From Archangium sp. (GTDB lineage Bacteria > Myxococcota > Myxococcia > Myxococcales > Myxococcaceae), in contig JASGKS010000001.1 in NCBI GenBank assembly GCA_047600485.1, positions 6,912,259 to 6,976,258 of the forward strand: a DNA stretch of 64,000 nucleotides, given 5' to 3'. The notes below the pieces were generated by a model, which had not been told where the DNA came from, searched no databases, and was given only the letters and a program-made list of their open reading frames with translations. Numbering within the stretch: position 1 is the stretch's first letter; each line of letters opens with the position of its first letter. Both the position numbers and the translations under genes were made by a program. Of this stretch, positions 2,869-28,968 are shown in pieces.

Positions 2869-3791
2869 GGCACGTCCTGTGGCTGGTGTTGTGTGCGGGG
2901 TGCGTGACCGTGCCGCCGCCGCGTGCCGGGTTCGACGTCGCGCTGACGGTCGATGATTTGCCGCTCCATGGGCCGCTCAGCGCCGAGCGACCGCCGCTCG
3001 ACATCGCCGAACGTTTCATCGCGGTGCTGCGCGCTCACGGCGTGCGCGGGGTATATGGGTTCACCAACGGCTCGCGCGTCGAGCCAGGCACGGAGCCGGT
3101 GCTCACCGCGTGGGTGAAGGCGGGCCATCACCTGAGCAACCACACGTGGTCTCACGGGAGCTTGAACCGACTCTCCGCCGAGGAGTTCCTCGCCGACGCT
3201 TCGCAGAACGAGCAACTGCTCGCGAAGTACGAGCCCGATGCGACGGCGCGCTTGTTCTTTCGGTACCCGTTCTTGTTCGAGGGCGACACGCTCGAGAAAC
3301 GCGAGGCGGTGCGACGCGGGTTGTTCGAGCGCGGCTTCAAGCTGGCGCACGTGTCCATCGATGCTGACGACTGGGCGTTCAACCCGCCGTTCGTGCGCTG
3401 TTTGAAAGCCGGTGAGCGCGAGAAGGTGGCGGAGCTGCGGAAGTTGTTCATCGCCACGCACCTCGACGAGTGGGAACGCATGCGCGCGTTGAGCAAATCG
3501 CTCACGCAGCGTGACGACGTGCCGCAGGTGTTGCTGCTGCACCTCGGTGCGGGTGACGCGGAGTTTCTCGACGAGTTGCTGACGGCGTTCGAGCAACGCG
3601 GCGCGCGTTGGGTTTCGTTGGACCGTGCGCTGGCTGATCCGTTCTATGGAATTGATCCCGCGCTGGCGCAGAAGTCGGGCGCGGCGTTTCCGTATCGCGT
3701 GGCGAAGGCGCGCGCGGTGAGCGTCGATGCGCCCATCTACGCGCGCGGGCTCGAGGAACGGCTGGAGACGTTCTGCGAGGGCGCCGAGTGA
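2865..3791 (+). CDS. Polysaccharide deacetylase (NodB/PgaB-like), secreted or lipoprotein
   Basis: ATG overlaps the GT2 stop (ATGA). Signal peptide MRHVLWLVLCAGC; TVDDLP...HTWSHG NodB-type motifs. Confidence 0.75.
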   Translation: MRHVLWLVLCAGCVTVPPPRAGFDVALTVDDLPLHGPLSAERPPLDIAERFIAVLRAHGVRGVYGFTNGSRVEPGTEPVLTAWVKAGHHLSNHTWSHGSLNRLSAEEFLADASQNEQLLAKYEPDATARLFFRYPFLFEGDTLEKREAVRRGLFERGFKLAHVSIDADDWAFNPPFVRCLKAGEREKVAELRKLFIATHLDEWERMRALSKSLTQRDDVPQVLLLHLGAGDAEFLDELLTAFEQRGARWVSLDRALADPFYGIDPALAQKSGAAFPYRVAKARAVSVDAPIYARGLEERLETFCEGAE

Positions 3792-3816
3792 CCTAGTGCG
3801 CTGAGTCCTACCCCGG

Positions 3817-3859
3817 CCCTCTCCCCGCTGTCGCAGGGAGAGGGTGCTGAGCGCTCAGC
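3817..3859. repeat. REP-like palindromic element (CCCTCTCCCC-N-GGGAGAGGG) plus second hairpin GCTGAGCGCTCAGC between convergent genes
   Basis: Two inverted repeats read directly from the sequence; same family as the copies at 4679, 18284, 30163 and 31139. Confidence 0.5.
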
Positions 3860-4676
3860 GGCGCTTGATCAACAGCACTGCGCCGAAGACTGCTCCGAGC
3901 GTGAGAATGATGGTCGCTCCGCTCGCGACGTTGAGGTGGTAGCTCGCGATGAGACCGATGACCGAGGTCACCACGCCGATGATCAACGCCCAGGCTGCGA
4001 CTCCCGAGAGCGTCTTGCCGAGCATGCGCGCGGTCGCCGCGGGAATGACGATGAAGCTCGAGACCAGCACCACGCCGACCGTCTTCACGCTGACCACGAT
4101 GATGAGCGCCGTGAGGCCGAGCAGCAGATAGTCGAGCGCCGCGACGGGAACTCCGGACAGCGCGGCGAGGTCGGGGTCGAACGTCGCGTACGCGAGGCGT
4201 GACCAGGTCGCGAGCAGCGCGACGAGCGTGATGAGCACCACCACCGCCACCATCCACATGTTCTGCGGAGAGATGGCGAGGATGCTGCCGAAGAGGACGG
4301 TTTCGACGTTCACCGGTTTGGCGTTCACCGAGCGCAGGCCGAGGAAGAGGACGCCGAGCGCGAAGCTGACGGAGAAGAAGACTCCGGTGGCGACGTCGCC
4401 GCGCAGCTTCCCGCGCCGCAGCACGTAGACGATGCCCATCGCCACCGCGAGCGTGAACGGGAGCGAGACCCAGCCGGCTTGATCGACGCTGACTCCGAGG
4501 AAGAGGCCGAGGCCCAGACCGCCGAAGGAAGCGTGCGCGAGGCCATCGCCGAGGAAGGACAGGCCTCGCTGCACGACGAAGACGCCGATGAGCGCGCAGA
4601 GGCCGGCGACGGCGGCTCCGGCGACGAGGGCGCGCTGCATGAACTCGAGTGCGAGGGGCTCGGTGAGGAAGTTCAT
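3855..4676 (-). CDS. znuB: Metal (Zn/Mn) ABC transporter permease
   Basis: Polytopic membrane protein with a TroC/ZnuB-like sequence (MNFLTEPLALEFMQRAL...); last gene of the SBP-ATPase-permease operon. Confidence 0.7.
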   Translation of the reverse strand: MNFLTEPLALEFMQRALVAGAAVAGLCALIGVFVVQRGLSFLGDGLAHASFGGLGLGLFLGVSVDQAGWVSLPFTLAVAMGIVYVLRRGKLRGDVATGVFFSVSFALGVLFLGLRSVNAKPVNVETVLFGSILAISPQNMWMVAVVVLITLVALLATWSRLAYATFDPDLAALSGVPVAALDYLLLGLTALIIVVSVKTVGVVLVSSFIVIPAATARMLGKTLSGVAAWALIIGVVTSVIGLIASYHLNVASGATIILTLGAVFGAVLLIKRR

Positions 4677-4678
4677 GT

Positions 4679-4718
4679 TTGACCCTCACCCCGACCCTCT
4701 CCCTCGCGGGAGAGGGGG
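4679..4718. repeat. REP-like palindromic element copy (GACCCTCACCCCGACCCTCTCCC-tcgc-GGGAGAGGG)
   Basis: Lies in the intergenic gap between the ATPase and permease genes. Confidence 0.5.
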
Positions 4719-4727
4719 ACATGGACG

Positions 4728-5516
4728 TCAGTCTTCATCGGGGGCCGCCTTGTGGTCTTGCGGAGGCGCGAACGCGAGCGCGGTCAGTCGGTCGTGTCCG
4801 AGCAATTCATCGGGCAAGCCCCACGCCACGAGTCTTCCGGCTTCGAGGTACACGATGCGCTCGGCGGTCTTGGTCACCGCCGCCACGTTGTGAGTGACGA
4901 GAATCGCCGCGATGTGGTCGCTCTTCGAAATGCCCGCGAGCAGCTCGAGAAATTCGCCGCGGCCCTTCACGTCGACGCCCGCGGTCGGCTCATCGAGGAT
5001 GAGCAGTTCCGGGTTGGTCACCATCGCGCGCGCGAGGAACACGCGCTGGGTTTCGCCACCCGAGAGCCCCGCGAGTGGCTTGTCGATGAGCTTCTCGCCG
5101 CCCGTCTTCACCAGCGCGAGTCGCGCCTTCTCGCGTTCTTCGGCCGTCACGCGCAGCGGCCACTTGCCGCGCAGGTTCGCGACGATGAGCTCCACTCCGG
5201 TCGCGGGGAAGTCTTGAGCGAACGTCTTGCGCTGCGGCACGTAGCCGATGGCGCCGCGCGTGTTTTCGAGCGGAACTCCGTTCACTTTGATTTCACCGCG
5301 CGTGCGCTTCATCAGCCCGAGGGCCGATTTGAGGAACGTGCTCTTGCCTGCTCCGTTGGGGCCGCAGAGACAGACGAATTCACCTTTGGGAATGTAGAAG
5401 GTGATGCCGTCGATGAGCGTGCGGTCGTCGACGTCGACGCCGAGGTTCACCACGTCGAGCACGCGCGGCAGCGACGGGTCGGGCACGGTGCCCTTGAGCG
5501 TCGTCGTCTCGCTCAC
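4728..5516 (-). CDS. znuC: Metal ABC transporter ATP-binding protein
   Basis: Walker A GPNGAGKST, ABC signature LSGGE, Walker B ILDEP. Start overlaps the SBP stop (ATGA). Confidence 0.8.
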   Translation of the reverse strand: MSETTTLKGTVPDPSLPRVLDVVNLGVDVDDRTLIDGITFYIPKGEFVCLCGPNGAGKSTFLKSALGLMKRTRGEIKVNGVPLENTRGAIGYVPQRKTFAQDFPATGVELIVANLRGKWPLRVTAEEREKARLALVKTGGEKLIDKPLAGLSGGETQRVFLARAMVTNPELLILDEPTAGVDVKGRGEFLELLAGISKSDHIAAILVTHNVAAVTKTAERIVYLEAGRLVAWGLPDELLGHDRLTALAFAPPQDHKAAPDED

Positions 5517-21265: not shown

Positions 21266-22156
21266 TCAGCAGTGGCTCGCCGCGAAATTGCCGGCGATGA
21301 AATCAGCGAGCAACCGCACGCGCGCTGGCACGTACTTCGACGCGGGCATCACGAGGTGAACGCCACCGCCGCTGATGCTCCACTCGGGCAACACGCGCTC
21401 GAACGGCGGAGCACCCTTCTTCGCGCACGCCGACGTCATGAAGATGGGCATCAACCCGATGCCGGTGCCGCGCGCGGTGATGGCGCGCATGAAGCCGAAG
21501 TCGTCGACGCTCAACGCGCCGCGCACCGTCACTTCGCGCTCGTCGTCACGCCGCGAGAGCTTCAGCCGCGCCTTGCCCTGACGGCCGCGGAACAGAATCA
21601 GCTCGTGCTCTGCAAGGGCGTCGACGTTCCTCGGCGCGCCGTGCTTGCGCACGTACTCAGGCGTCGCGAACAGCCCGAGGTCCGACTGCGCGAGCTTGCG
21701 TGAGATGAGCGACGAGTCGTCGAGCCGACCCGCACGCAGCGCGAGGTCGATGCCTTCCTCGATGAGATTCACCTGGCGGTTGGTCACCACCACCTCGACG
21801 TGAATGTTCGGGTGGTCCTTCGAGAAGCGCGCGAGCAGCTCGGCCATCGGGTACGCGTCGTTGGGCAGTGAGAGCCGCACCACGCCGCTCGCGTCGTCGG
21901 TGGCGTGACCCACCTCGGCCTGCGCTTCTTCGAGCGCCGCGCGCGCTGCCTTCGCCCGCTCGTAGAACGCGCGACCCGCTTCGGTCAGCTCGAGTGAACG
22001 CGTGGTGCGCTGCAGAAGCTGCGTCTCGAGCTCCTTCTCCAGCGAAGTGACGGCGCGGCTCGCAGTCGACTTCGGCACGCCGAGCGACTTCGCGGCGGCG
22101 GTAAAGCTCCCTTGATCCACCACCTTGAGGAAGACGGGAACGCGGCTCCAATCCAT
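21266..22156 (-). CDS. LysR-family transcriptional regulator
   Basis: N-terminal HTH (FLKVVDQGSFTAAAKSLGVPKSTASR) and a LysR substrate-binding domain. Start taken at MDWSRV (ATG 22156). Divergent from the doxX-rSAM operon. Confidence 0.8.
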   Translation of the reverse strand: MDWSRVPVFLKVVDQGSFTAAAKSLGVPKSTASRAVTSLEKELETQLLQRTTRSLELTEAGRAFYERAKAARAALEEAQAEVGHATDDASGVVRLSLPNDAYPMAELLARFSKDHPNIHVEVVVTNRQVNLIEEGIDLALRAGRLDDSSLISRKLAQSDLGLFATPEYVRKHGAPRNVDALAEHELILFRGRQGKARLKLSRRDDEREVTVRGALSVDDFGFMRAITARGTGIGLMPIFMTSACAKKGAPPFERVLPEWSISGGGVHLVMPASKYVPARVRLLADFIAGNFAASHC

Positions 22157-22231
22157 GTTGCATGAATAGCAACAAAGCGTTCGAAACGCACAATCTAGTG
22201 CTGCTGGCGCAACGGCCTTATTCGTGCGCCC

Positions 22232-22666
22232 ATGACCAAATACCTCGCGCACCTTCCCCGCCTCTTCCTGGGCCTCGTCTTCACCGTGTTCGGCATCGCA
22301 GGGTTGTTTCACCTGATGCCGCAGCCGCCGCTCCCCGAGGGCATCGCCGGCACGTACATCTCCGCGCTCGGCGGCACGTACCTCTTCACGCTGGTGAAGC
22401 TCACCGAGGTGGTGGCCGGCGTGCTGTTCCTCGCCAACCGCTTCAGCGCGCTCGCCGCGATTCTCATCGCGCCGGTGGTGGTGAACATCTTCGCGGCGCA
22501 CGCCTTCGTGCTGCCCGGCGGTCTGGGCCTGCCCATCGCGCTCGTCGCCGCGCTGGTCTTCGTGGCCTGGCAGCGTCGTGAGGCCTACCGCCCGCTGTTC
22601 GTCGCGAAGACGCAGACGGCTGCGGCGGCTTCCGAGCCGAGCGCCCGCACGCTCGCGGCGGCCTGA
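22232..22666 (+). CDS. DoxX-family membrane protein
   Basis: About 140 aa with four TM helices. First gene of the operon with the rSAM enzyme (21-bp gap). Confidence 0.65.
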   Translation: MTKYLAHLPRLFLGLVFTVFGIAGLFHLMPQPPLPEGIAGTYISALGGTYLFTLVKLTEVVAGVLFLANRFSALAAILIAPVVVNIFAAHAFVLPGGLGLPIALVAALVFVAWQRREAYRPLFVAKTQTAAAASEPSARTLAAA

Positions 22667-22687
22667 TTCGTCTACAGTGCGCGGCTC

Positions 22688-23989
22688 GTGACTGCGCCGC
22701 GCCACACGCTCCGACTCGAGGCTGATCGCGCGCTGCTCTACGACCGCGTCGCGCATCAGTACTTCCCGCTCAGCGCCGGCGAGGCGTTCCTCTGCACCGC
22801 CGCTGCCGAGGTCGGGCTCGACGAAGCGACGCGCCTGCTCGCGCAGAAAATCGGCGACGACGACGCGAACGACTTTCGCGCGCAGCTCGAAGACGACGGA
22901 GCGCTGAACGAAAACGGCTTCACCGGCCGGCTCCTCGAGCAGCGCGACATCAAGGGTGCGTACGCCGCTCCGCTGGTGTGCCACCTGGGCGTGACGCTGG
23001 CGTGCAACTTCGCGTGCAACCACTGCTACTCGTCGAGCGGCCAGCGCGCGAAAGACGAGCTCACGCTCGACGACATCAAGGGCCTCGTCGATCAGCTCGT
23101 CGACATCGGCTGCATGAAGCTGGTGCTCGGCGGCGGCGAACCGTTCCTCCGCAAGGAACTGGCCGACATCGTCGCGTACGCCGATTCGCGCGGAGTCGAC
23201 TGCTTCGTCCACACCAACGCCTCGCTGGTGCGCGCTGAAGTCCTCGAGCGCCTCGCGAAGACGCCGCCCGCCTCACTCGCCGTCAGCCTCGACGGCCCCG
23301 ACGCGCACACCAACGACCGCGTGCGCGGACCCAAAGCGTTCGAGAAGACGATGAAGGGCCTCGAGGTGCTGCGCGCCAATTGGCCGCACGGCTTCAACCT
23401 CTCGGTCACCATCACGCCCGAGAACGCCACGCTCACACCGCAGCTCGTCGCGCTCGCGAAGGAACAGGGCGCCAACGTGTTGCTGCTGCGACCCGCGTAC
23501 CCCGCCGGCGAAGCGATGAAGGACACCTCGCTCATCTGCGACCGCGAGACGTTCGCGCGCGCCATCGACCTCGCACGGCCCGAAGCGAAGAAGCTCGGCG
23601 TCACGCTCGACGCGCCGCACCCGCATGAGCAGGGCGAGCCCGACTTCGAAGGCTTCGGCTGCGTCGCGGCGCGCGTGGTGCTCGGTGTCGACCCGCGCGG
23701 CAACGTCACGCCGTGCCTCAATCTCCCGGGCGGCTTCGACAGCGGCAACATCAAGGAGAAGAAGCTGCAAGACCTCTGGAAGAAGGGTCGCGGCTTCGTG
23801 CTGCTGCGCGCGCAGGAAGCGGGTCCTCAGTGCAGCACCTGCAAGCACTACGAGACCTGTCGCGGCGGCTGCCGCGTGCGCGCCCTCTATTCCGAGAACG
23901 GTCTCGGTGGCCCCGACAGTTGGTGTCACTATGAGCCGCGCGAAGTTTCGAAGCAGACCCGCCGCACACGCACAGGAGCAACACGATGA
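22688..23989 (+). CDS. Radical SAM/SPASM-domain peptide-modifying enzyme with N-terminal PqqD-like RRE
   Basis: CNFACNHC (Cx3Cx2C); GGEPFL; twitch/SPASM Cys cluster (CLNLPGG...CSTCKHYETCRGGCRVRA...WCHYEP). N-terminal segment of about 95 aa is RRE-like (YFPLSAGEAFL...). Confidence 0.8.
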   Translation: MTAPRHTLRLEADRALLYDRVAHQYFPLSAGEAFLCTAAAEVGLDEATRLLAQKIGDDDANDFRAQLEDDGALNENGFTGRLLEQRDIKGAYAAPLVCHLGVTLACNFACNHCYSSSGQRAKDELTLDDIKGLVDQLVDIGCMKLVLGGGEPFLRKELADIVAYADSRGVDCFVHTNASLVRAEVLERLAKTPPASLAVSLDGPDAHTNDRVRGPKAFEKTMKGLEVLRANWPHGFNLSVTITPENATLTPQLVALAKEQGANVLLLRPAYPAGEAMKDTSLICDRETFARAIDLARPEAKKLGVTLDAPHPHEQGEPDFEGFGCVAARVVLGVDPRGNVTPCLNLPGGFDSGNIKEKKLQDLWKKGRGFVLLRAQEAGPQCSTCKHYETCRGGCRVRALYSENGLGGPDSWCHYEPREVSKQTRRTRTGATR

Positions 23990-24306
23990 CGGTTCGACGA
24001 ACGGGCACTCGCACGCCGGTGTCCAGTGGTTGTGGTTCTTCTTCGACGCGCGGAACTTCGAAGCCGTCGCCGCGCAAGCCGGTCGCCACGGGCTGCGGCA
24101 CCTCGTCGAGCTCGGGCAGCAAGGGCTGGTCGGCGAAGACCGGCGGCAAGGTGAGCGACAAGGTCAGCCAGCGCAGCAAGGACCTGCTCGACAAGGCCGA
24201 GGGCAAGACCGGGCGTCGCACCACGTCGAGCGGCTGCGGCACGTCGTCGCCGAGCAAGCCGTCGCCGCACAAGCCCACTCCGAAGCCGACGCGCACGGGG
24301 TGCTGA
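23986..24306 (+). CDS. Small basic Ser/Thr/Pro-rich peptide with repeated GCG(S/T)SS motifs (candidate rSAM substrate)
   Basis: ATGA overlap with the rSAM stop. High GC3 in this frame. SGCGSSS, TGCGTSSSS, SGCGTSSPS and a C-terminal TGC. No signal peptide. Confidence 0.5.
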   Translation: MTVRRTGTRTPVSSGCGSSSTRGTSKPSPRKPVATGCGTSSSSGSKGWSAKTGGKVSDKVSQRSKDLLDKAEGKTGRRTTSSGCGTSSPSKPSPHKPTPKPTRTGC

Positions 24307-24307
24307 G

Positions 24308-24613
24308 ATGAACCAGCACCGACTGTCCCGCTTGAAGCGATTGGCGACGGGCGCAGCGTTGATCAGCTCCACGCTCGCGCTCGGCGAAGACGTCAAGGCG
24401 CCGCCCGTGAACCCGGGCCCGCCGACTCGCATGAACTCACCGGGCAAGCAGAAGCCGGTGGCGGTCGACGCGGGCGTCGTCGATGCGGGCGTGACCGAAG
24501 AACCGGTGAAGCCCGATGACGGCCCGCACGTGAACAGCCCGCCGCCGCAGAAGCCCATTGCGAAGCCGCGGCCGCCGAACGTGAACTCGCCGCCTCAGCC
24601 GACCACGAAGTGA
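24308..24613 (+). CDS. Secreted Pro-rich peptide with three (R/H/N)(M/V)NSP..QKP repeats
   Basis: Starts 1 nt after the stop of the preceding peptide. Signal peptide ...ALISSTLALG. High GC3. Confidence 0.5.
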   Translation: MNQHRLSRLKRLATGAALISSTLALGEDVKAPPVNPGPPTRMNSPGKQKPVAVDAGVVDAGVTEEPVKPDDGPHVNSPPPQKPIAKPRPPNVNSPPQPTTK

Positions 24614-24663: not shown

Positions 24664-25281
24664 ATGTCACCGTCGCTCCCCGCTCTCCGCGCCGCCCTTC
24701 GTGCTCGGCCACGAGACGCGGCGTTGCGCGCGGTGTTCGCCGATTTTCTGCTCGAGCGTGGCGACCCCAGAGGCCTCTTCATTCAGGCGCAGCGCGAAGG
24801 ACGCGTCGAAGAAGCGCAGCGCCTGCTCGAGAAATACCGCGTCCACTTCGTTCACCCGTTGCCGCATGGCGCTGACGTGGACTTCGTCGATGGCTTCGTC
24901 GACGCGTGGCGCACGACGCCCGACGAATTTCGCCGCGCGGGCAGAAGGATGTTGCGACACCTGCCGCTGCGCTCGCTCACCTTGAGCGGAGTGCGCCAGG
25001 TCGACCTCCAATACCTGCTCGCCTCGGAAGGTCTGGAGTGCGTCACCACGCTCGTGCTCCACCAGCTGCGCATCGGCGCGCTGCAGTTGCTGGCGAGCAA
25101 CGACTTGCCGCACGTGCGCGTGCTGCAGGTCTCCGGCGCGCTGATGGAATCGCAGCTCGACGCGCTGCCCGACACCGACGTCGCGCGCCGGCTGCGCAGA
25201 GCCGCGACGCCACCGACCCGCGGCCGCCCGTTCTTCTGGATCGACGAGCGCTTCGAGTCACCGTTCGCGCAGTTGGGCTAG
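24664..25281 (+). CDS. TIGR02996-like repeat-companion/LRR protein (short paralog)
   Basis: LRAVFADFLLERGDPRGLFI motif near the N-terminus. Confidence 0.5.
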   Translation: MSPSLPALRAALRARPRDAALRAVFADFLLERGDPRGLFIQAQREGRVEEAQRLLEKYRVHFVHPLPHGADVDFVDGFVDAWRTTPDEFRRAGRRMLRHLPLRSLTLSGVRQVDLQYLLASEGLECVTTLVLHQLRIGALQLLASNDLPHVRVLQVSGALMESQLDALPDTDVARRLRRAATPPTRGRPFFWIDERFESPFAQLG

Positions 25282-25294
25282 ACCTCGCGCTCGC

Positions 25295-26164
25295 GTGACG
25301 AGCACCATCTTCAGCCGCACCGCCGTTCCCGATGGAGACACGCTCGGGCTCACGCGCGAACACGAGCTCGTCGCGCAGCCGCGCAAGGGCACCATCGACT
25401 GGGCGTCGTTCAATCGCTCACAGTTCGATGAAGCGAGCCTCGAGACCGCGCGCACGTTGTGGAGTCACCGCGCCTTCACCGAGTTCCACTCGCTCACGCA
25501 CTTCTCGCAGCTCAGCTCACAGCTGCATCTGCTCGGCGCGCCGCTCGACTGGAGCGGTGCCTTCGCGCGCATGGTGAGCGACGAGGTACGCCACACCGAG
25601 CTGTGTCTGCGAATGGTCGAAGCGCTCGGCGGCTCGCGAGACCTCACGCTTCCTTCGCTCGACGGCGTTCATCAGACCGTTCCGCAGGGCACGCTCCGCG
25701 CGCACGTGCGTCGCACCGTCATCAGCGCGTTCTGCATCGGCGAGACGCTCTCGGGGCGCATGTTCAAGCGCTGCCTCGCGGGCGCGAACGTGCCGCTGGC
25801 GCGCGACGTGGTGACCGCCATTCTCGTCGACGAGACGTTCCACTCCGAGCTGGGTTGGGAATTGGGCGCGCTCCTGATGCGGCCCGACGAGGCGGTCGCG
25901 ACGGAAGTCGCCGCGCTCGAAGCCGAGCTGCCGAAGCTGTTCGCTGATTTTGCGCAGCAGTGTCTGGCGACGAAGAGCGCGGCCTGGGCGCGCGCGCAAC
26001 CCGAGTTCGACGACGGTCCCAACTTCGGCACCATGAGCACCGCGGGCTACGCACACGCCTTCTACGAGGGCATGGAGCACGACGTGGTGCCGGGCCTGGA
26101 AGCCATCGGACTGGGTCACGCGCGCGCAGCGTGGGAGCAATTCATCGCCACGCGCCGCTATTGA
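25295..26164 (+). CDS. Ferritin-like (di-iron, two ExxH) domain protein
   Basis: DEVRHTELCLRM and DETFHSELGWELG suggest di-iron carboxylate ligands. Start uncertain. Confidence 0.5.
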   Translation: MTSTIFSRTAVPDGDTLGLTREHELVAQPRKGTIDWASFNRSQFDEASLETARTLWSHRAFTEFHSLTHFSQLSSQLHLLGAPLDWSGAFARMVSDEVRHTELCLRMVEALGGSRDLTLPSLDGVHQTVPQGTLRAHVRRTVISAFCIGETLSGRMFKRCLAGANVPLARDVVTAILVDETFHSELGWELGALLMRPDEAVATEVAALEAELPKLFADFAQQCLATKSAAWARAQPEFDDGPNFGTMSTAGYAHAFYEGMEHDVVPGLEAIGLGHARAAWEQFIATRRY

Positions 26165-26494: not shown

Positions 26495-27430
26495 TCAGTC
26501 GGAGTCGGTCATCGCCAGCACCGCGAGCCTCGCGTCGGGCCGCAGACACACCAGCCCCACGTCGAGCACCACGTGGGCGAACCAATCGCTGTCGCTCTCG
26601 AACTGCGCCCACTGGCACTGCTCGGCGAGCGCGTTCACCTCGTCGAACGAAGCGTTGTCGGCTGCTCCGGTGAGCGCGCGCAGAGAACGCCACGCGAGCA
26701 ATCTCCCGAAGGCCGCCGAGCGCGCCGCGACGTACGCGCCTCCACACGTCGCGAGTTGCAGCAACAACGCCATCACTTCGCGCGGCGTGCTGGCGCGCAT
26801 CTTCGGCGGTGTTCCCGCGGCGAGGCAGTCGAGCTTCAGGGGAAACAGCGCGAGCGTCTCGACTCGGAGCGGCGCGCGCTCGAGCTTGAACACGCGGCCT
26901 TCCCACGTCGAGTTGGGCGCGAGTGCTTCGTCGCTGAGCACCGACGCCATGACCCGCGCATCGCAGCTCTGCTCGACCGCCGCAGTGGCCCACGTGCCCG
27001 GCGAGCCGTTGACCGCCCAGTTCATGCCGTCGAACTCGAACCAGTTTCCGAGCGTGTCTCCACGGCGCGCCGAGGTGCGGATGCACTTCTCTTCGAGCGG
27101 CAGCACGCGCAAGGGCAGCGCCTTCAGTGGATGTTGCGACGGCAGGCGTTCCCAGAACGCGGTGACGAACGGCGAGCGCGCGACCTCGCTGCCACGCACC
27201 ACGCGCTCCTGAATCCAGCACGCGAAGAGGTCCTGCAGTGAAGGCTCGGGGCCGAACCACTCAAGCTCACGCTCCAGCATCGCGTCGTCTTGCGCGTAGG
27301 CGAGCAGCGCTCCCAGGTTGCGCGCCGGAGCATCGACCAGCGTACGAACGCCGCTTCGGTGCTGCTCGCTCTCTGGAGGCGTCTTCGCGAGTTCCAGGAA
27401 ACGCCGCAGCGCATCGGGCTGCTTCAGCAT
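26495..27430 (-). CDS. Hypothetical protein (start uncertain)
   Basis: The track ORF extends to 28279 but overlaps the 27631..28968 gene. No canonical in-frame start lies between 27430 and 27630. Confidence 0.4.
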   Translation of the reverse strand: MLKQPDALRRFLELAKTPPESEQHRSGVRTLVDAPARNLGALLAYAQDDAMLERELEWFGPEPSLQDLFACWIQERVVRGSEVARSPFVTAFWERLPSQHPLKALPLRVLPLEEKCIRTSARRGDTLGNWFEFDGMNWAVNGSPGTWATAAVEQSCDARVMASVLSDEALAPNSTWEGRVFKLERAPLRVETLALFPLKLDCLAAGTPPKMRASTPREVMALLLQLATCGGAYVAARSAAFGRLLAWRSLRALTGAADNASFDEVNALAEQCQWAQFESDSDWFAHVVLDVGLVCLRPDARLAVLAMTDSD

Positions 27431-27630
27431 GCCGAGCGCGCGAAACGACGACTGGTGCGGCCAGCTCTGCAGCAGCGGGTGCTTGTGACTCGCGCGGTGC
27501 AGCTCGAGCAGGAACGTCTCGTCGTCGCGGCGAATGGCGTCGGTGATGGACGTCTGCAGCAACCGCCAGTCGTCTCCGTCGGCCGGCGCGCCGGTGCGGG
27601 GAAAGCGCGCGACGAGGCGCTCGACTGGAG

Positions 27631-28968
27631 TCAGAAGCCGACCACCCACGCGTTGATTTCGGTGCCCGAGTACGTCGTCGCGGTGCCGAAGGTGGTGGGC
27701 AGCGCAGTGGTGATGGTGAGCGAGCGGTACGCGGTGGTCGCGGTGTTGGTGCCGTGGAACACGCTGGTGTCGGTGCTGAAGTTGCTCATCAACCAGTACG
27801 TGCCCGCGGTGACGGTGGTCTGCGCAGTGGCTGGGATTTCGGTGCGGCCCGCAGTCGACGTGACGGTTGCCGTCGAGGCGACCAGCGTGCCCGGTGCTCC
27901 GGCGGAGTTCGTGTACAGCGCATAGCGCGCGGTGGCGCCGCTCGGAGCGCTCGAGAGATTGATGCCGAAGTGCGTGAGCGTGAACGTGGCCGGCACGGTG
28001 ATGGTGTGCCCGAGCAGATACGGCCCCTGGTGCGTGTTGGCGCTGCTGAAGGTGCCCGAGTTGCCGTAGCGCACCATGCCGCCGCCGCCGGTGCATTGAC
28101 CGGTGCTGCAGGTCTGCGTGCCGCTGCACACGTTGCACGTCGCTCCGTTGATGCCGCACGCCGCGAGCGTGGTGCCGGTCATGCACGTGCCGCTCGCCGA
28201 GCAGCAGCCCGCGCAGTTGGCCGCACTGCAGGTGGTGCTCACGCACTGATTGGTGGTGCACGTCTCGCCGCTGCCGCACGAGACGCAGGCGTCACCGCCG
28301 AAACCGCACGAGGCGTTGGTGGTGCCCGACAAACACGTGCCTCCCGAGTTGCAGCAGCCGGCGCAGTTCGCAGGGCTGCACGACGGAGGCGTCACGCACA
28401 GACCGTTCGAGCACGCGCGCCCGCCGGAGCACGCCTGGCAGAGGTTGCCGCCCGAGCCGCACGCCGCGGTGTTGTCGCCCGCCTGGCAGAAGCCGCCCGA
28501 GGTGCAGCAGCCGGCGCAGTTCGCGGGGCTGCAGGTCGCTCCGCCACCACCGGTCGGGCCGCCGCCACCGCCCGTCACTCCGCCGCCGCCGCCCGTGACG
28601 CCGCCACCGCCGGTCGTTCCACCGCCGGTCACGCCACCGCCTCCGCCCGTGACTCCGCCGCCTCCGCCCGTCGCTCCGCCGCCGCCGGTCGTACCGCCGC
28701 CACTTCCACCGCCGGTGCCGCCACCGCCTCCACCGCCCGCGAAAATCGGCGGCTGGCAGAAGCCGAAGTTGCACTGGTAGTTCGAGATGCACGCCTGGCA
28801 CATCGCGCCGCCGCTGCCGCACGCGGTCGGAAGCGAGCCGGGCTGACACGAGCCCGTGGCGTCACAACACCCGGTGCAGTTCGACATGGAGCACTTGTCC
28901 TTCGCGGGTCCGCACGAGACGACGAGTGAACCCAACGAGAGACAAACGACGAGCGGCAGAAATCGCAT
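27631..28968 (-). CDS. Lipoprotein with five tandem 8-Cys modules, poly-Gly linker and C-terminal beta-rich domain
   Basis: Signal peptide MRFLPLVVCLSLGSLVVSCG. Modules of the form CSxxNCxGCCxxxGxCxxGxxxxACGxxGxxCxxC....C. Confidence 0.65.
   Translation of the reverse strand: MRFLPLVVCLSLGSLVVSCGPAKDKCSMSNCTGCCDATGSCQPGSLPTACGSGGAMCQACISNYQCNFGFCQPPIFAGGGGGGGTGGGSGGGTTGGGGATGGGGGVTGGGGGVTGGGTTGGGGVTGGGGGVTGGGGGPTGGGGATCSPANCAGCCTSGGFCQAGDNTAACGSGGNLCQACSGGRACSNGLCVTPPSCSPANCAGCCNSGGTCLSGTTNASCGFGGDACVSCGSGETCTTNQCVSTTCSAANCAGCCSASGTCMTGTTLAACGINGATCNVCSGTQTCSTGQCTGGGGMVRYGNSGTFSSANTHQGPYLLGHTITVPATFTLTHFGINLSSAPSGATARYALYTNSAGAPGTLVASTATVTSTAGRTEIPATAQTTVTAGTYWLMSNFSTDTSVFHGTNTATTAYRSLTITTALPTTFGTATTYSGTEINAWVVGF

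Follow-up and report, generated by a model that had tools for sequence, protein, structure and literature searches.

A radical SAM/SPASM gene and an adjoining small open reading frame

We examined a 64,000-nucleotide stretch of DNA from Archangium sp. (contig JASGKS010000001.1; the whole stretch is called the window below), in which the gene for a radical S-adenosylmethionine (rSAM) enzyme with a SPASM domain overlaps a small open reading frame (ORF), here named peptide A, that we propose as the substrate of the enzyme. The enzyme gene lies at 22688-23989 (+) and encodes 433 residues with Pfam matches to Radical_SAM (PF04055, E 5e-24) and SPASM (PF13186, E 2e-07). It scored below the cut-off of every named NCBIfam family, the best being MftC (TIGR03962, 189.3 bits versus 265), and about 65 clusters of homologues at 42-91% identity were followed by a sharp gap to MftC-like proteins at 30-34%. 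When an AlphaFold2 (AF2) model of the enzyme (predicted local distance difference test, pLDDT, 91) was compared with the Protein Data Bank (PDB), the top full-length folds were SkfB, SuiB and CteB, all peptide maturases bearing a recognition element (RRE) for peptides that are made on ribosomes and modified after translation (RiPPs); SkfB was also the closest PDB sequence match, with an HMMER alignment starting at residue 4. The N-terminal domain of the window enzyme (residues ~1-75; 22688-22912, +) is itself predicted to have a PqqD-like RRE topology, the model placing a beta3-alpha3 arrangement at 6-70 with strands 6-11, 14-19 and 24-28 and helices 30-42, 44-55 and 57-70, at pLDDT 90-98.

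The CX3CX2C radical-SAM motif (C106, C110 and C113; 23003-23026, +) was invariant in 55 aligned sequences. The SPASM motif contains seven Cys (C325, C343, C382, C385, C391, C395 and C413; 23660-23926, +), all invariant in alignment A2, which also places G338, in the SPASM region, four residues ahead of C343. Seven Cys leave one auxiliary-cluster ligand position not filled by the motif, and in CteB-type thioether synthases such an open position binds a substrate Cys. As a separate observation among the more distant homologues, locus L035 (561-2654, +) encodes a 697-residue fusion of a trypsin-like serine protease domain to an rSAM/SPASM enzyme that is 32% identical to the window enzyme and appears to be a separate system.

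Peptide A occupies 23986-24306 (+) and comprises 106 residues plus a stop codon (MTVRRTG...PTRTGC*; full translation MTVRRTGTRTPVSSGCGSSSTRGTSKPSPRKPVATGCGTSSSSGSKGWSAKTGGKVSDKVSQRSKDLLDKAEGKTGRRTTSSGCGTSSPSKPSPHKPTPKPTRTGC*). An initial annotation, made from the window sequence, had read its ATG as overlapping the rSAM stop codon TGA; the overlap can be read directly as ATGA, and a Shine-Dalgarno-like AGGAG, likewise read directly, occupies 23974-23978 (+) and precedes the ATG by 7 nt. The same annotation described a basic, disordered peptide of biased composition, and this portrait was borne out: Ser (22), Thr (16), Gly (15), Lys (12), Pro (10) and Arg (9) dominate, S/T/G/P/K make up 71% of the residues, K+R number 21 against 4 for D+E, the isoelectric point is 11.1 and the grand average of hydropathy -1.07, with no hydrophobic stretch on direct reading and no signal peptide. 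All four Cys (16, 37, 84 and 106) are preceded by (S/T)-G, as had been noted, in the contexts VSSGCGSSS, VATGCGTSS, TSSGCGTSS and RTGC-stop, an arrangement in which every Cys follows [ST]G and which arose in just 1 of 200,000 composition-preserving shuffles of the peptide. The regular spacing of about 30 residues claimed for these Cys did not survive, the actual intervals being 21, 47 and 22 with 30 only as their mean. Peptide A matched no Pfam or NCBIfam family. We rejected a lipoprotein assignment, as the S-T-G-C context lacks the hydrophobic -3 residue of a lipobox and the peptide lacks a hydrophobic stretch.

Peptide A is almost certainly a translated gene

Homologue conservation, Shine-Dalgarno sites, in-frame indels and synonymous codon choice all support the earlier proposal that this ORF is translated, and peptide A is almost certainly a genuine gene. 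An AGGAG, GAGAG, GGAGG or GGAG sequence stood 5-9 nt before the start codon in all 18 of the loci examined, and in all loci the ORF began at or beside the rSAM stop codon and ended with a stop codon placed directly after a conserved terminal Cys. Across seven orthologous loci, differences at third codon positions outnumbered those at first and second positions, many codon changes were synonymous and every indel was in frame. A synonymous-codon score gave 0.63 for the peptide A frame and 0.45 for the antisense one. Of seven neighbouring genes, six reached 0.53-0.76 and the other, a possibly over-extended ORF at 26495-28279, reached 0.36. The strong G+C bias at third codon positions reported for the peptide A frame was confirmed (0.93-0.95 over 24040-24280), but it cannot fix the strand alone, as an antisense ORF at 23751-24296 (-) shares the same third position.

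The opposing view, that the region is not a gene and is either a 3' untranslated region or the complement of a real antisense frame at 23751-24296, draws on that shared GC-rich third position, on the more usual pattern of GC1 above GC2 in the antisense ORF and on antisense frames that are open in most orthologues. A whole-codon usage score also fell slightly on the antisense side (0.31 versus 0.11), which speaks mildly against peptide A and which we attribute to its atypical Ser/Thr/Gly/Lys-rich composition. The antisense ORF would, however, overlap 240 nt of the Pfam-confirmed rSAM gene, and one antisense frame (frame 1) is interrupted by a stop codon in locus L013. The boundaries on the + strand are kept in all loci, the synonymous-codon score sides with the + frame, and same-frame homologues of a second, longer type described below contain a domain modelled as helical by AF2. 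We therefore rejected the antisense ORF on synonymous-codon score, conserved boundaries, rSAM overlap and foldable homologues, and a noncoding RNA or untranslated region on the absence of any Rfam match at E <= 1; the view as a whole is scarcely credible. A scan for promoters and terminators returned 0 promoter-like sites and 1 terminator-like site, the latter on the opposite strand. As an aside on gene finding, a shadow ORF such as 23751-24296 (-) that outscores the true frame on whole codons is a warning to those who call genes by composition in GC-rich genomes.

The enzyme and peptide A form a conserved two-gene cassette

Loci were gathered through homology to the enzyme and their neighbouring ORFs were then read. 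A direct search with peptide A returned five proteins and a profile search of 1.84 billion cluster representatives returned ten members, all of the peptide A family; none of these was named, and all of the ~30 relatives in total were unannotated or hypothetical in their source records. The source loci were metagenome-assembled genomes labelled Myxococcota or an older name for it, with one labelled Pseudomonadota. Every fetched enzyme of 48-91% identity had a partner peptide adjoining it, directly downstream in all loci except L012, where it was directly upstream, and the enzyme-peptide pair were the sole genes conserved across loci. The initial annotation had cast peptide A as a substrate of the adjacent enzyme, and the pairing in all loci read marks it as a conserved partner and hence presumably the substrate. 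The Cys positions, conservation of which at orthologous loci had been put forward as a check, were invariant for all four Cys in an alignment of five sequences (A1), and the Cys motif recurred in every relative. The enzyme and peptide A thus constitute a minimal two-gene cassette in which the peptide is translationally coupled, and peptide A is very probably the cognate substrate of the upstream RRE-rSAM-SPASM enzyme.

In a neighbour-joining (NJ) tree of the enzymes, clades corresponded to substrate type. Type-1 peptides, which resemble peptide A, comprise 17 sequences of 75-121 residues that are disordered and basic, with 3-5 Cys, and 14 of the 17 start with MTV(G/R)(K/R)xG. Type-2 peptides comprise ~14 sequences of 126-218 residues in which a helical N-domain of ~105 residues is followed by a Pro-rich disordered tail; the N-domain holds one embedded V-S-T-G-C-G motif and the tail adds 1-4 modules. 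An AF2 model of a type-2 peptide was helical over residues 1-105 (pLDDT ~80), with the tail below 50. The N-domain carries an EF-hand-like loop, D-x-N-x-D-G-x-I-x-x-x-E (for example in L011 7317-7883, L031 3594-4076 and L033 4304-4747); all Pfam EF-hand matches to it were below threshold, and a Foldseek fold search returned weak matches to EF-hand, lanmodulin and calmodulin structures at E 0.02 or worse.

An alternative that leaves peptide A translated but not a substrate would make it a disordered accessory, for example in metal or Fe-S delivery, as a thiol reductant or as a regulator, that is merely co-transcribed with the enzyme. The absence of leader-cleavage or export genes conserved across loci is compatible with such a role, and basic Cys-Gly-rich peptides can bind metals. 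Against it stand the predicted peptide-recognition domain of the enzyme, the tracking of peptide type by enzyme clade, the status of the peptide as the sole gene conserved with the enzyme, and a strict eight-residue context round each Cys that exceeds what simple metal binding needs. We regard the accessory role as very improbable, and substrate of the adjacent enzyme remains the preferred assignment.

Peptide A contains dispersed Cys modules and conserved non-Cys segments

We compiled a motif table of 25 peptides with 97 Cys, and all 97 fell inside the motif with none outside it; every Cys lay in [V/I/T]-[S/A]-[T/S]-G-C-G or in a terminal P-x-R-T-G-C-COOH. Counted over 52 internal type-1 modules relative to the Cys at position 0, position -4 was Val in 39, Thr in 8 and Ile in 3; -3 was Ser in 39 and Ala in 12; -2 was Thr in 45 and Ser in 7; -1 was Gly in 47, Ala in 3 and Ser in 2; +1 was Gly in 49 and Ala in 3; +2 was Ala, Thr or Ser; and +3 was Ser in 39. 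After each internal Cys the sequence reads G-[AST]-S-x. The terminal module takes the form P-[TV]-R-T-G-C-COOH; in 17/17 type-1 peptides the stop codon comes directly after R-[TS]-[GS]-C, and a C-terminal Cys is present in all ~30 peptides of both architectures. In peptide A itself the modules are VSSGCG (Cys16; 24019-24036, +), VATGCG (Cys37; 24082-24099, +), TSSGCG (Cys84; 24223-24240, +) and the terminal PTRTGC-COOH (24286-24303, +), in which Cys106 is the final residue; RKPVATGCGTSS and KPTRTGC are examples of single-module sequences.

Outside the modules, the N-terminal segment MTVRRTGTRTPV (23986-24021, +) is a candidate RRE recognition strand, and M1, T2, V3, G7, R9, P11 and V12 are invariant in alignment A1. 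Also invariant there is Gly47-Trp48 (24124-24129, +); Trp was found in 15/17 type-1 peptides and is hence not universal, and a Trp-Lys cross-link at this conserved GW was rejected, since peptides P0012 and P0014 and most type-2 peptides lack Trp. The central segment KVSQRSKDLLDKA (24160-24198, +) includes the invariant residues S64, L67, L68 and A71. By hhalign (probability 96.7%, E 4e-10), residues 56-106 of peptide A matched the final helix of the type-2 N-domain and the tail behind it, KVSQRSKDLLDKA being paired with KKLSPLAARLLQAA. Because this alignment spans the domain end and the tail, the central segment can be read as a remnant of a leader-like domain, namely the last helix of the type-2 N-domain. 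Since type 1 is nested inside type 2 in the enzyme NJ tree, peptide A looks derived, with most of the N-domain lost and two N-terminal modules gained. The earlier remark that the peptide lacks an obvious leader/core split therefore holds for peptide A itself but not for its sister peptides, in which an N-domain precedes a tail of Cys motifs and to which peptide A is linked by hhalign; no cleavage site could be inferred for the type-2 layout of N-domain and tail.

The relatives carry 2-6 Cys separated by linkers of 14-54 residues, with four tandem module copies in L011, and this variation, together with the 21/47/22 spacing of peptide A, removes the regular spacing that had been offered as an argument for thioether crosslinking. 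Variable linkers and motif number instead point to autonomous local modules and away from a sactipeptide of the hairpin type. A classical sactipeptide or ranthipeptide with long-range links, in which Cys sulfurs would be bonded to distant residues at an alpha, beta or gamma carbon to give a hairpin or nested bundle, has in its favour that the thioether synthases SkfB and CteB are among the best PDB matches of the enzyme, that the MftC-like StsB makes Cys-to-Gly sactionines (PMC10288494), and that Gly, Ser and Thr are plentiful in peptide A as possible acceptors. The free variation of Cys number and spacing runs counter to that architecture, as do linkers that are Pro/Lys-rich and of low complexity, the lack of any acceptor position conserved outside the modules in the five-sequence alignment, and a shortage of Asp/Glu acceptors (D+E is 0 in L013, which has 3 Cys, and 1 in L029, which has 4). 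We consider long-range crosslinking quite improbable for peptide A, and local, module-by-module modification is the reading that we carry forward.

A sister clade of enzymes is paired with Tyr-motif proteins

Enzymes at 42-47% identity formed their own clade in the NJ tree (L025/L034, L027, L108, L109 and L110), and each adjoined a protein of 304-454 residues that contains at most one Cys, together with a small partner (117-139 residues). The large proteins are encoded at L025 6321-7670 (-), L027 6375-7289 (-), L108 4819-6183 (-), beside the enzyme at 3501-4814, L109 4608-5855 (-) and L110 2257-3501 (+), and no Pfam family was found for them or for the 117-139 residue partners. Their putative functional link to the enzyme is based on synteny in five loci. 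The large proteins carry [V/I]-x-x-[G/S]-Y-G motifs, including V-S-N-S-Y-G, I-N-T-G-Y-G and V-R-D-G-Y-G-S*, with Val or Ile at -4 from Tyr in every instance read; many end in PVR..(G/S)YG(S/N)*, and in several (L109, L110) the Tyr motif is internal and not C-terminal. Tyr thus stands in for Cys, and the flanking V/I (-4), G/S (-1) and G (+1) are shared.

The two enzyme classes also differ at position 284. This residue, encoded at 23537-23539 (+) in the window, is Cys in 19/19 enzymes that have a Cys-motif peptide as partner; 4/5 of those next to Tyr-motif proteins have Val instead, and MftC has Ala or Pro. Cys284 could be an extra cluster ligand or a hydrogen-atom donor.

The resemblance of the enzyme to MftC raises the prospect of a small-molecule or cofactor precursor, in which the decisive event would take place at the C-terminal Gly-Cys-COOH, for example an oxidative decarboxylation to an enethiol followed by cyclisation, and what remains of the peptide would be a scaffold whose internal motifs are decoys or extra sites. 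MftC is the closest named family and supplies the next homologues past the family gap (30-34% identity), the C-terminal Cys is invariant across both peptide architectures, and the terminal P-V-R-x-G-C resembles the P-V-R-x-G-Y-G-S end of the sister clade. The internal modules, however, are conserved as well as the terminal one and are multiplied in some members such as L011, the Tyr motif is internal in several sister-clade proteins, and no MftB/D/E/F-like genes, peptidase or oxidoreductase are conserved near the pair. The precursor scheme strikes us as improbable.

A local thioether at each module is the favoured chemistry

Modification of peptide A is probably local to each module, a reading taken from the sequence pattern: module number and spacing vary, and nothing follows the terminal Cys. 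As the terminal module ends at its Cys, the partner atom would lie upstream of that Cys or on the Cys itself. Within this local scheme our tentative assignment is a thioether of short range, in which the Cys sulfur would bond to a carbon at -4 or -2. It is favoured because the most conserved non-glycine positions are -4 and -2 and because two enzymes offer precedents: PapB installs local thioethers in six repeated C-X3-D/E motifs of one precursor (PMC9413430), and StsB, which is nearest in sequence to MftC, is nevertheless a sactisynthase (PMC10288494). In the sister clade, a carbon-centred radical could react just as well with a Tyr ring.

In the mechanism that we favour, the RRE would dock a conserved non-Cys segment, either the MTVxKxG N-terminus or the S-x-x-L-L-x-K-A helix remnant or both, and threading of the disordered chain would then let every [V/I/T]-[S/A]-[T/S]-G-C-G module, as well as the terminal P-x-R-T-G-C-COOH, be processed separately. 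A 5'-deoxyadenosyl radical would take a hydrogen atom within the module, and the Cys thiolate, probably held on the auxiliary cluster with its open coordination site, would bond to a carbon of a residue 2-4 positions upstream, either the Val/Ile/Thr at -4 or the Thr/Ser at -2. The outcome would be one small thioether ring per module and four in peptide A.

Several observations weigh against this scheme. The thioether assignment for peptide A is an argument by analogy throughout, and every NCBIfam model of a thioether maturase scored below its cut-off on the window enzyme (StsB 111/625, SkfB 82/300 and PapB 65/340 bits). Position -4 is Ala or Lys in the terminal module of 3/17 type-1 peptides, which weakens it as a universal acceptor. 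Across the loci compared, the neighbourhood of the pair lacks a conserved protease or exporter, and the cassette may therefore not be a classical secreted RiPP. The Cys-to-Tyr swap in the sister clade fits abstraction of a C-beta hydrogen from Cys or Tyr equally well, and SbtM, an rSAM/SPASM enzyme, acts in just this way on a conserved Gly-Cys/Sec (PMC9204691).

The last two points belong to the main rival, in which the enzyme would oxidise each Cys at C-beta in the manner of SbtM or anSME to give a 5-thiooxazole, formylglycine or a thioaldehyde-derived product, the result being a poly-thiolate heterocycle peptide and possibly a metal binder. Gly precedes Cys in 47/52 internal and 16/17 terminal type-1 modules, and such an oxidation requires only the preceding carbonyl and so fits the truncated G-C-COOH terminal module as well. 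MftC, the nearest named relative, takes a C-beta hydrogen from Tyr, in line with the equivalence of Cys and Tyr in the sister clade. The SbtM model (TIGR04082), however, gave the enzyme 64.6 bits against a cut-off of 350, and oxazole formation has no need of V/I/T at -4 or T/S at -2, yet both are conserved. Some members have Ala or Ser instead of Gly at -1, which the chemistry could tolerate but which shows that Gly is not essential. We rate C-beta oxidation as unlikely though a serious competitor, and the short-range thioether is retained as the favoured product.

A broader and rather doubtful proposal is that the enzyme clade makes no distinction between Cys and Tyr at [V/I]-x-x-[G/S]-[C/Y]-G, whether for a cross-link or for an oxidation; an example would be an MftC-derived coupling of the beta-branched -4 residue to a Cys sulfur or a Tyr ring. 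If interchange is true, substrates would range from a disordered peptide of 75 residues to proteins of 450, and neither the bond type nor such a range of substrates has so far been described for rSAM/SPASM enzymes. The C-terminal Gly-Cys, which is invariant, might in addition yield a thiol-bearing cofactor or metallophore.

Neighbouring genes are not part of the cassette

In the window the pair is flanked by genes for a DoxX-like protein, a LysR regulator, peptide B, a TIGR02996-domain protein, an ExxH protein and DUF6183. Peptide B (24308-24613, +) begins 1 nt after the peptide A stop codon. Its N-terminus (MNQHRLSRLKRLATGAALISSTLALG) resembles a signal peptide, and it contains four Pro-rich (V/M)N(S/P)(P/G) repeats; its homologues were seen in L005 (7653-7919) and L007 (5682-5957) only. 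Between peptide B and the ExxH protein lies the 205-residue TIGR02996-domain protein (24664-25281, +; N-terminal domain E 3e-09), with a homologue in L007 only. The ExxH protein itself (25295-26164, +; 289 residues) contains two ExxH motifs, DEVRH and DETFH, gave a weak Rubrerythrin match (E 0.23) and no PDB sequence match, and could be a ferritin-like di-iron enzyme; it is joined to the cassette in the window, L005 and L007 only. We rejected all three proteins as core parts, since their conservation is confined to the window and the two loci nearest to it (L005 and L007) and they are absent from L006, the enzyme of which is 82% identical.

Upstream, a DoxX-like membrane protein (22232-22666, +) ends 22 nt before the rSAM gene and adjoins a divergent LysR regulator of 302 residues (21266-22174, -), for which the listed 648-residue ORF at 21266-23212 is an over-extension. 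These two genes are likewise local and not conserved across loci. No mftB, mftD, mftE or mftF and no conserved peptidase or oxidoreductase was found near the pair.

Comparison with known systems

Compared with RRE-dependent rSAM RiPP systems in general, the pair has the rSAM core, the SPASM domain, a predicted RRE and a co-varying adjacent small ORF, and it lacks a leader/core organisation with a leader protease and/or exporter. The target motif of anSME and formylglycine-generating enzymes in sulfatases is C/S-x-P/A-x-R, and the internal Cys of the peptide A family do not follow it, being succeeded by G-[AST]-S-x. The repeated motif of TvgA is TVGG. In the TvgA/TvgB poly-cyclopropylglycine system many short copies of such a Val/Gly motif are processed by one rSAM/SPASM enzyme (PMC10878394 for the enzyme), a likeness to peptide A taken from its description; the chemistry there strikes Val methyl groups and involves no Cys.

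Mycofactocin offers the nearest named enzyme family (MftC, 189 bits and 30-34% identity), which acts on an invariant C-terminal residue and a nearby Val, and the sister clade described here shares a conserved Val and Tyr with mycofactocin MftA/MftC. Unlike MftA, which ends in Val-Tyr, peptide A ends in Thr-Gly-Cys and has several internal sites, and the RRE is fused to the enzyme here and is the separate protein MftB there. Likeness to MftC does not imply mycofactocin chemistry, since the MftC-like enzymes of StsA/StsB and BlaA/BlaB work on Cys/Gly-rich cores (PMC10288494). The StsA core, however, is a compact CxCxCx4GxGxG hairpin after a normal leader, whereas modules of the peptide A family are dispersed and variable in number. 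The sactipeptide hairpin layout is in fact absent: Cys are spread over the whole of peptide A without conserved acceptors outside the modules, and the StsB and SkfB scores given above place the enzyme in no known sactisynthase family.

SbtM converts a conserved Gly-Cys into a thiooxazole, which establishes Gly-Cys/Sec as a modification site of an rSAM/SPASM enzyme (PMC9204691). Peptide A shares the Gly-Cys site but has no selenocysteine, and its motif reaches to -4. A close parallel in organisation is freyrasin PapA/PapB, in which, as here, one RRE-rSAM-SPASM enzyme is combined with several short repeated Cys modules and the rings are local. Unlike PapA, peptide A has no Asp/Glu near its Cys; it has instead a V-S-T-G-C-G motif with conserved partner positions upstream of Cys, the modules of its family are 14-54 residues apart, and the PapB model fits the enzyme poorly (65 bits against 340). 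Cys-Asp/Glu (ranthionine) links of the PapB/QhpD type were accordingly rejected as the general chemistry, given that L013 is without any Asp/Glu.

SCIFF peptides have ~45 residues and six clustered Cys and are found in Clostridia. The SCIFF/CteB pair (thermocellin) resembles the peptide A pair as a minimal two-gene cassette in which a Cys-rich peptide is combined with an RRE-rSAM-SPASM enzyme and a conserved protease or exporter is lacking; peptide A differs in having 106 residues with 4 dispersed Cys and relatives labelled almost entirely Myxococcota. We met the pair only in uncultured bacteria so labelled, and literature searches found no description of the peptide A family.

rSAM/SPASM enzymes keep giving new peptide chemistry, and most such finds begin from a conserved enzyme-peptide pair. 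Unusual features of this pair are a long, basic, disordered substrate with autonomous V-S-T-G-C-G modules and an obligatory C-terminal Cys, relatives with an EF-hand-like N-domain, and the replacement of Cys by Tyr on protein-sized substrates in the sister clade. Taken together, these features define a small set of constructs with which the activity of the enzyme could be explored, and they allow a test of one rSAM scaffold switching between Cys and Tyr substrates. The general kind, an rSAM-matured peptide, is well known; the novelty lies in the architecture of the substrate and in the sister relationship between Cys and Tyr.

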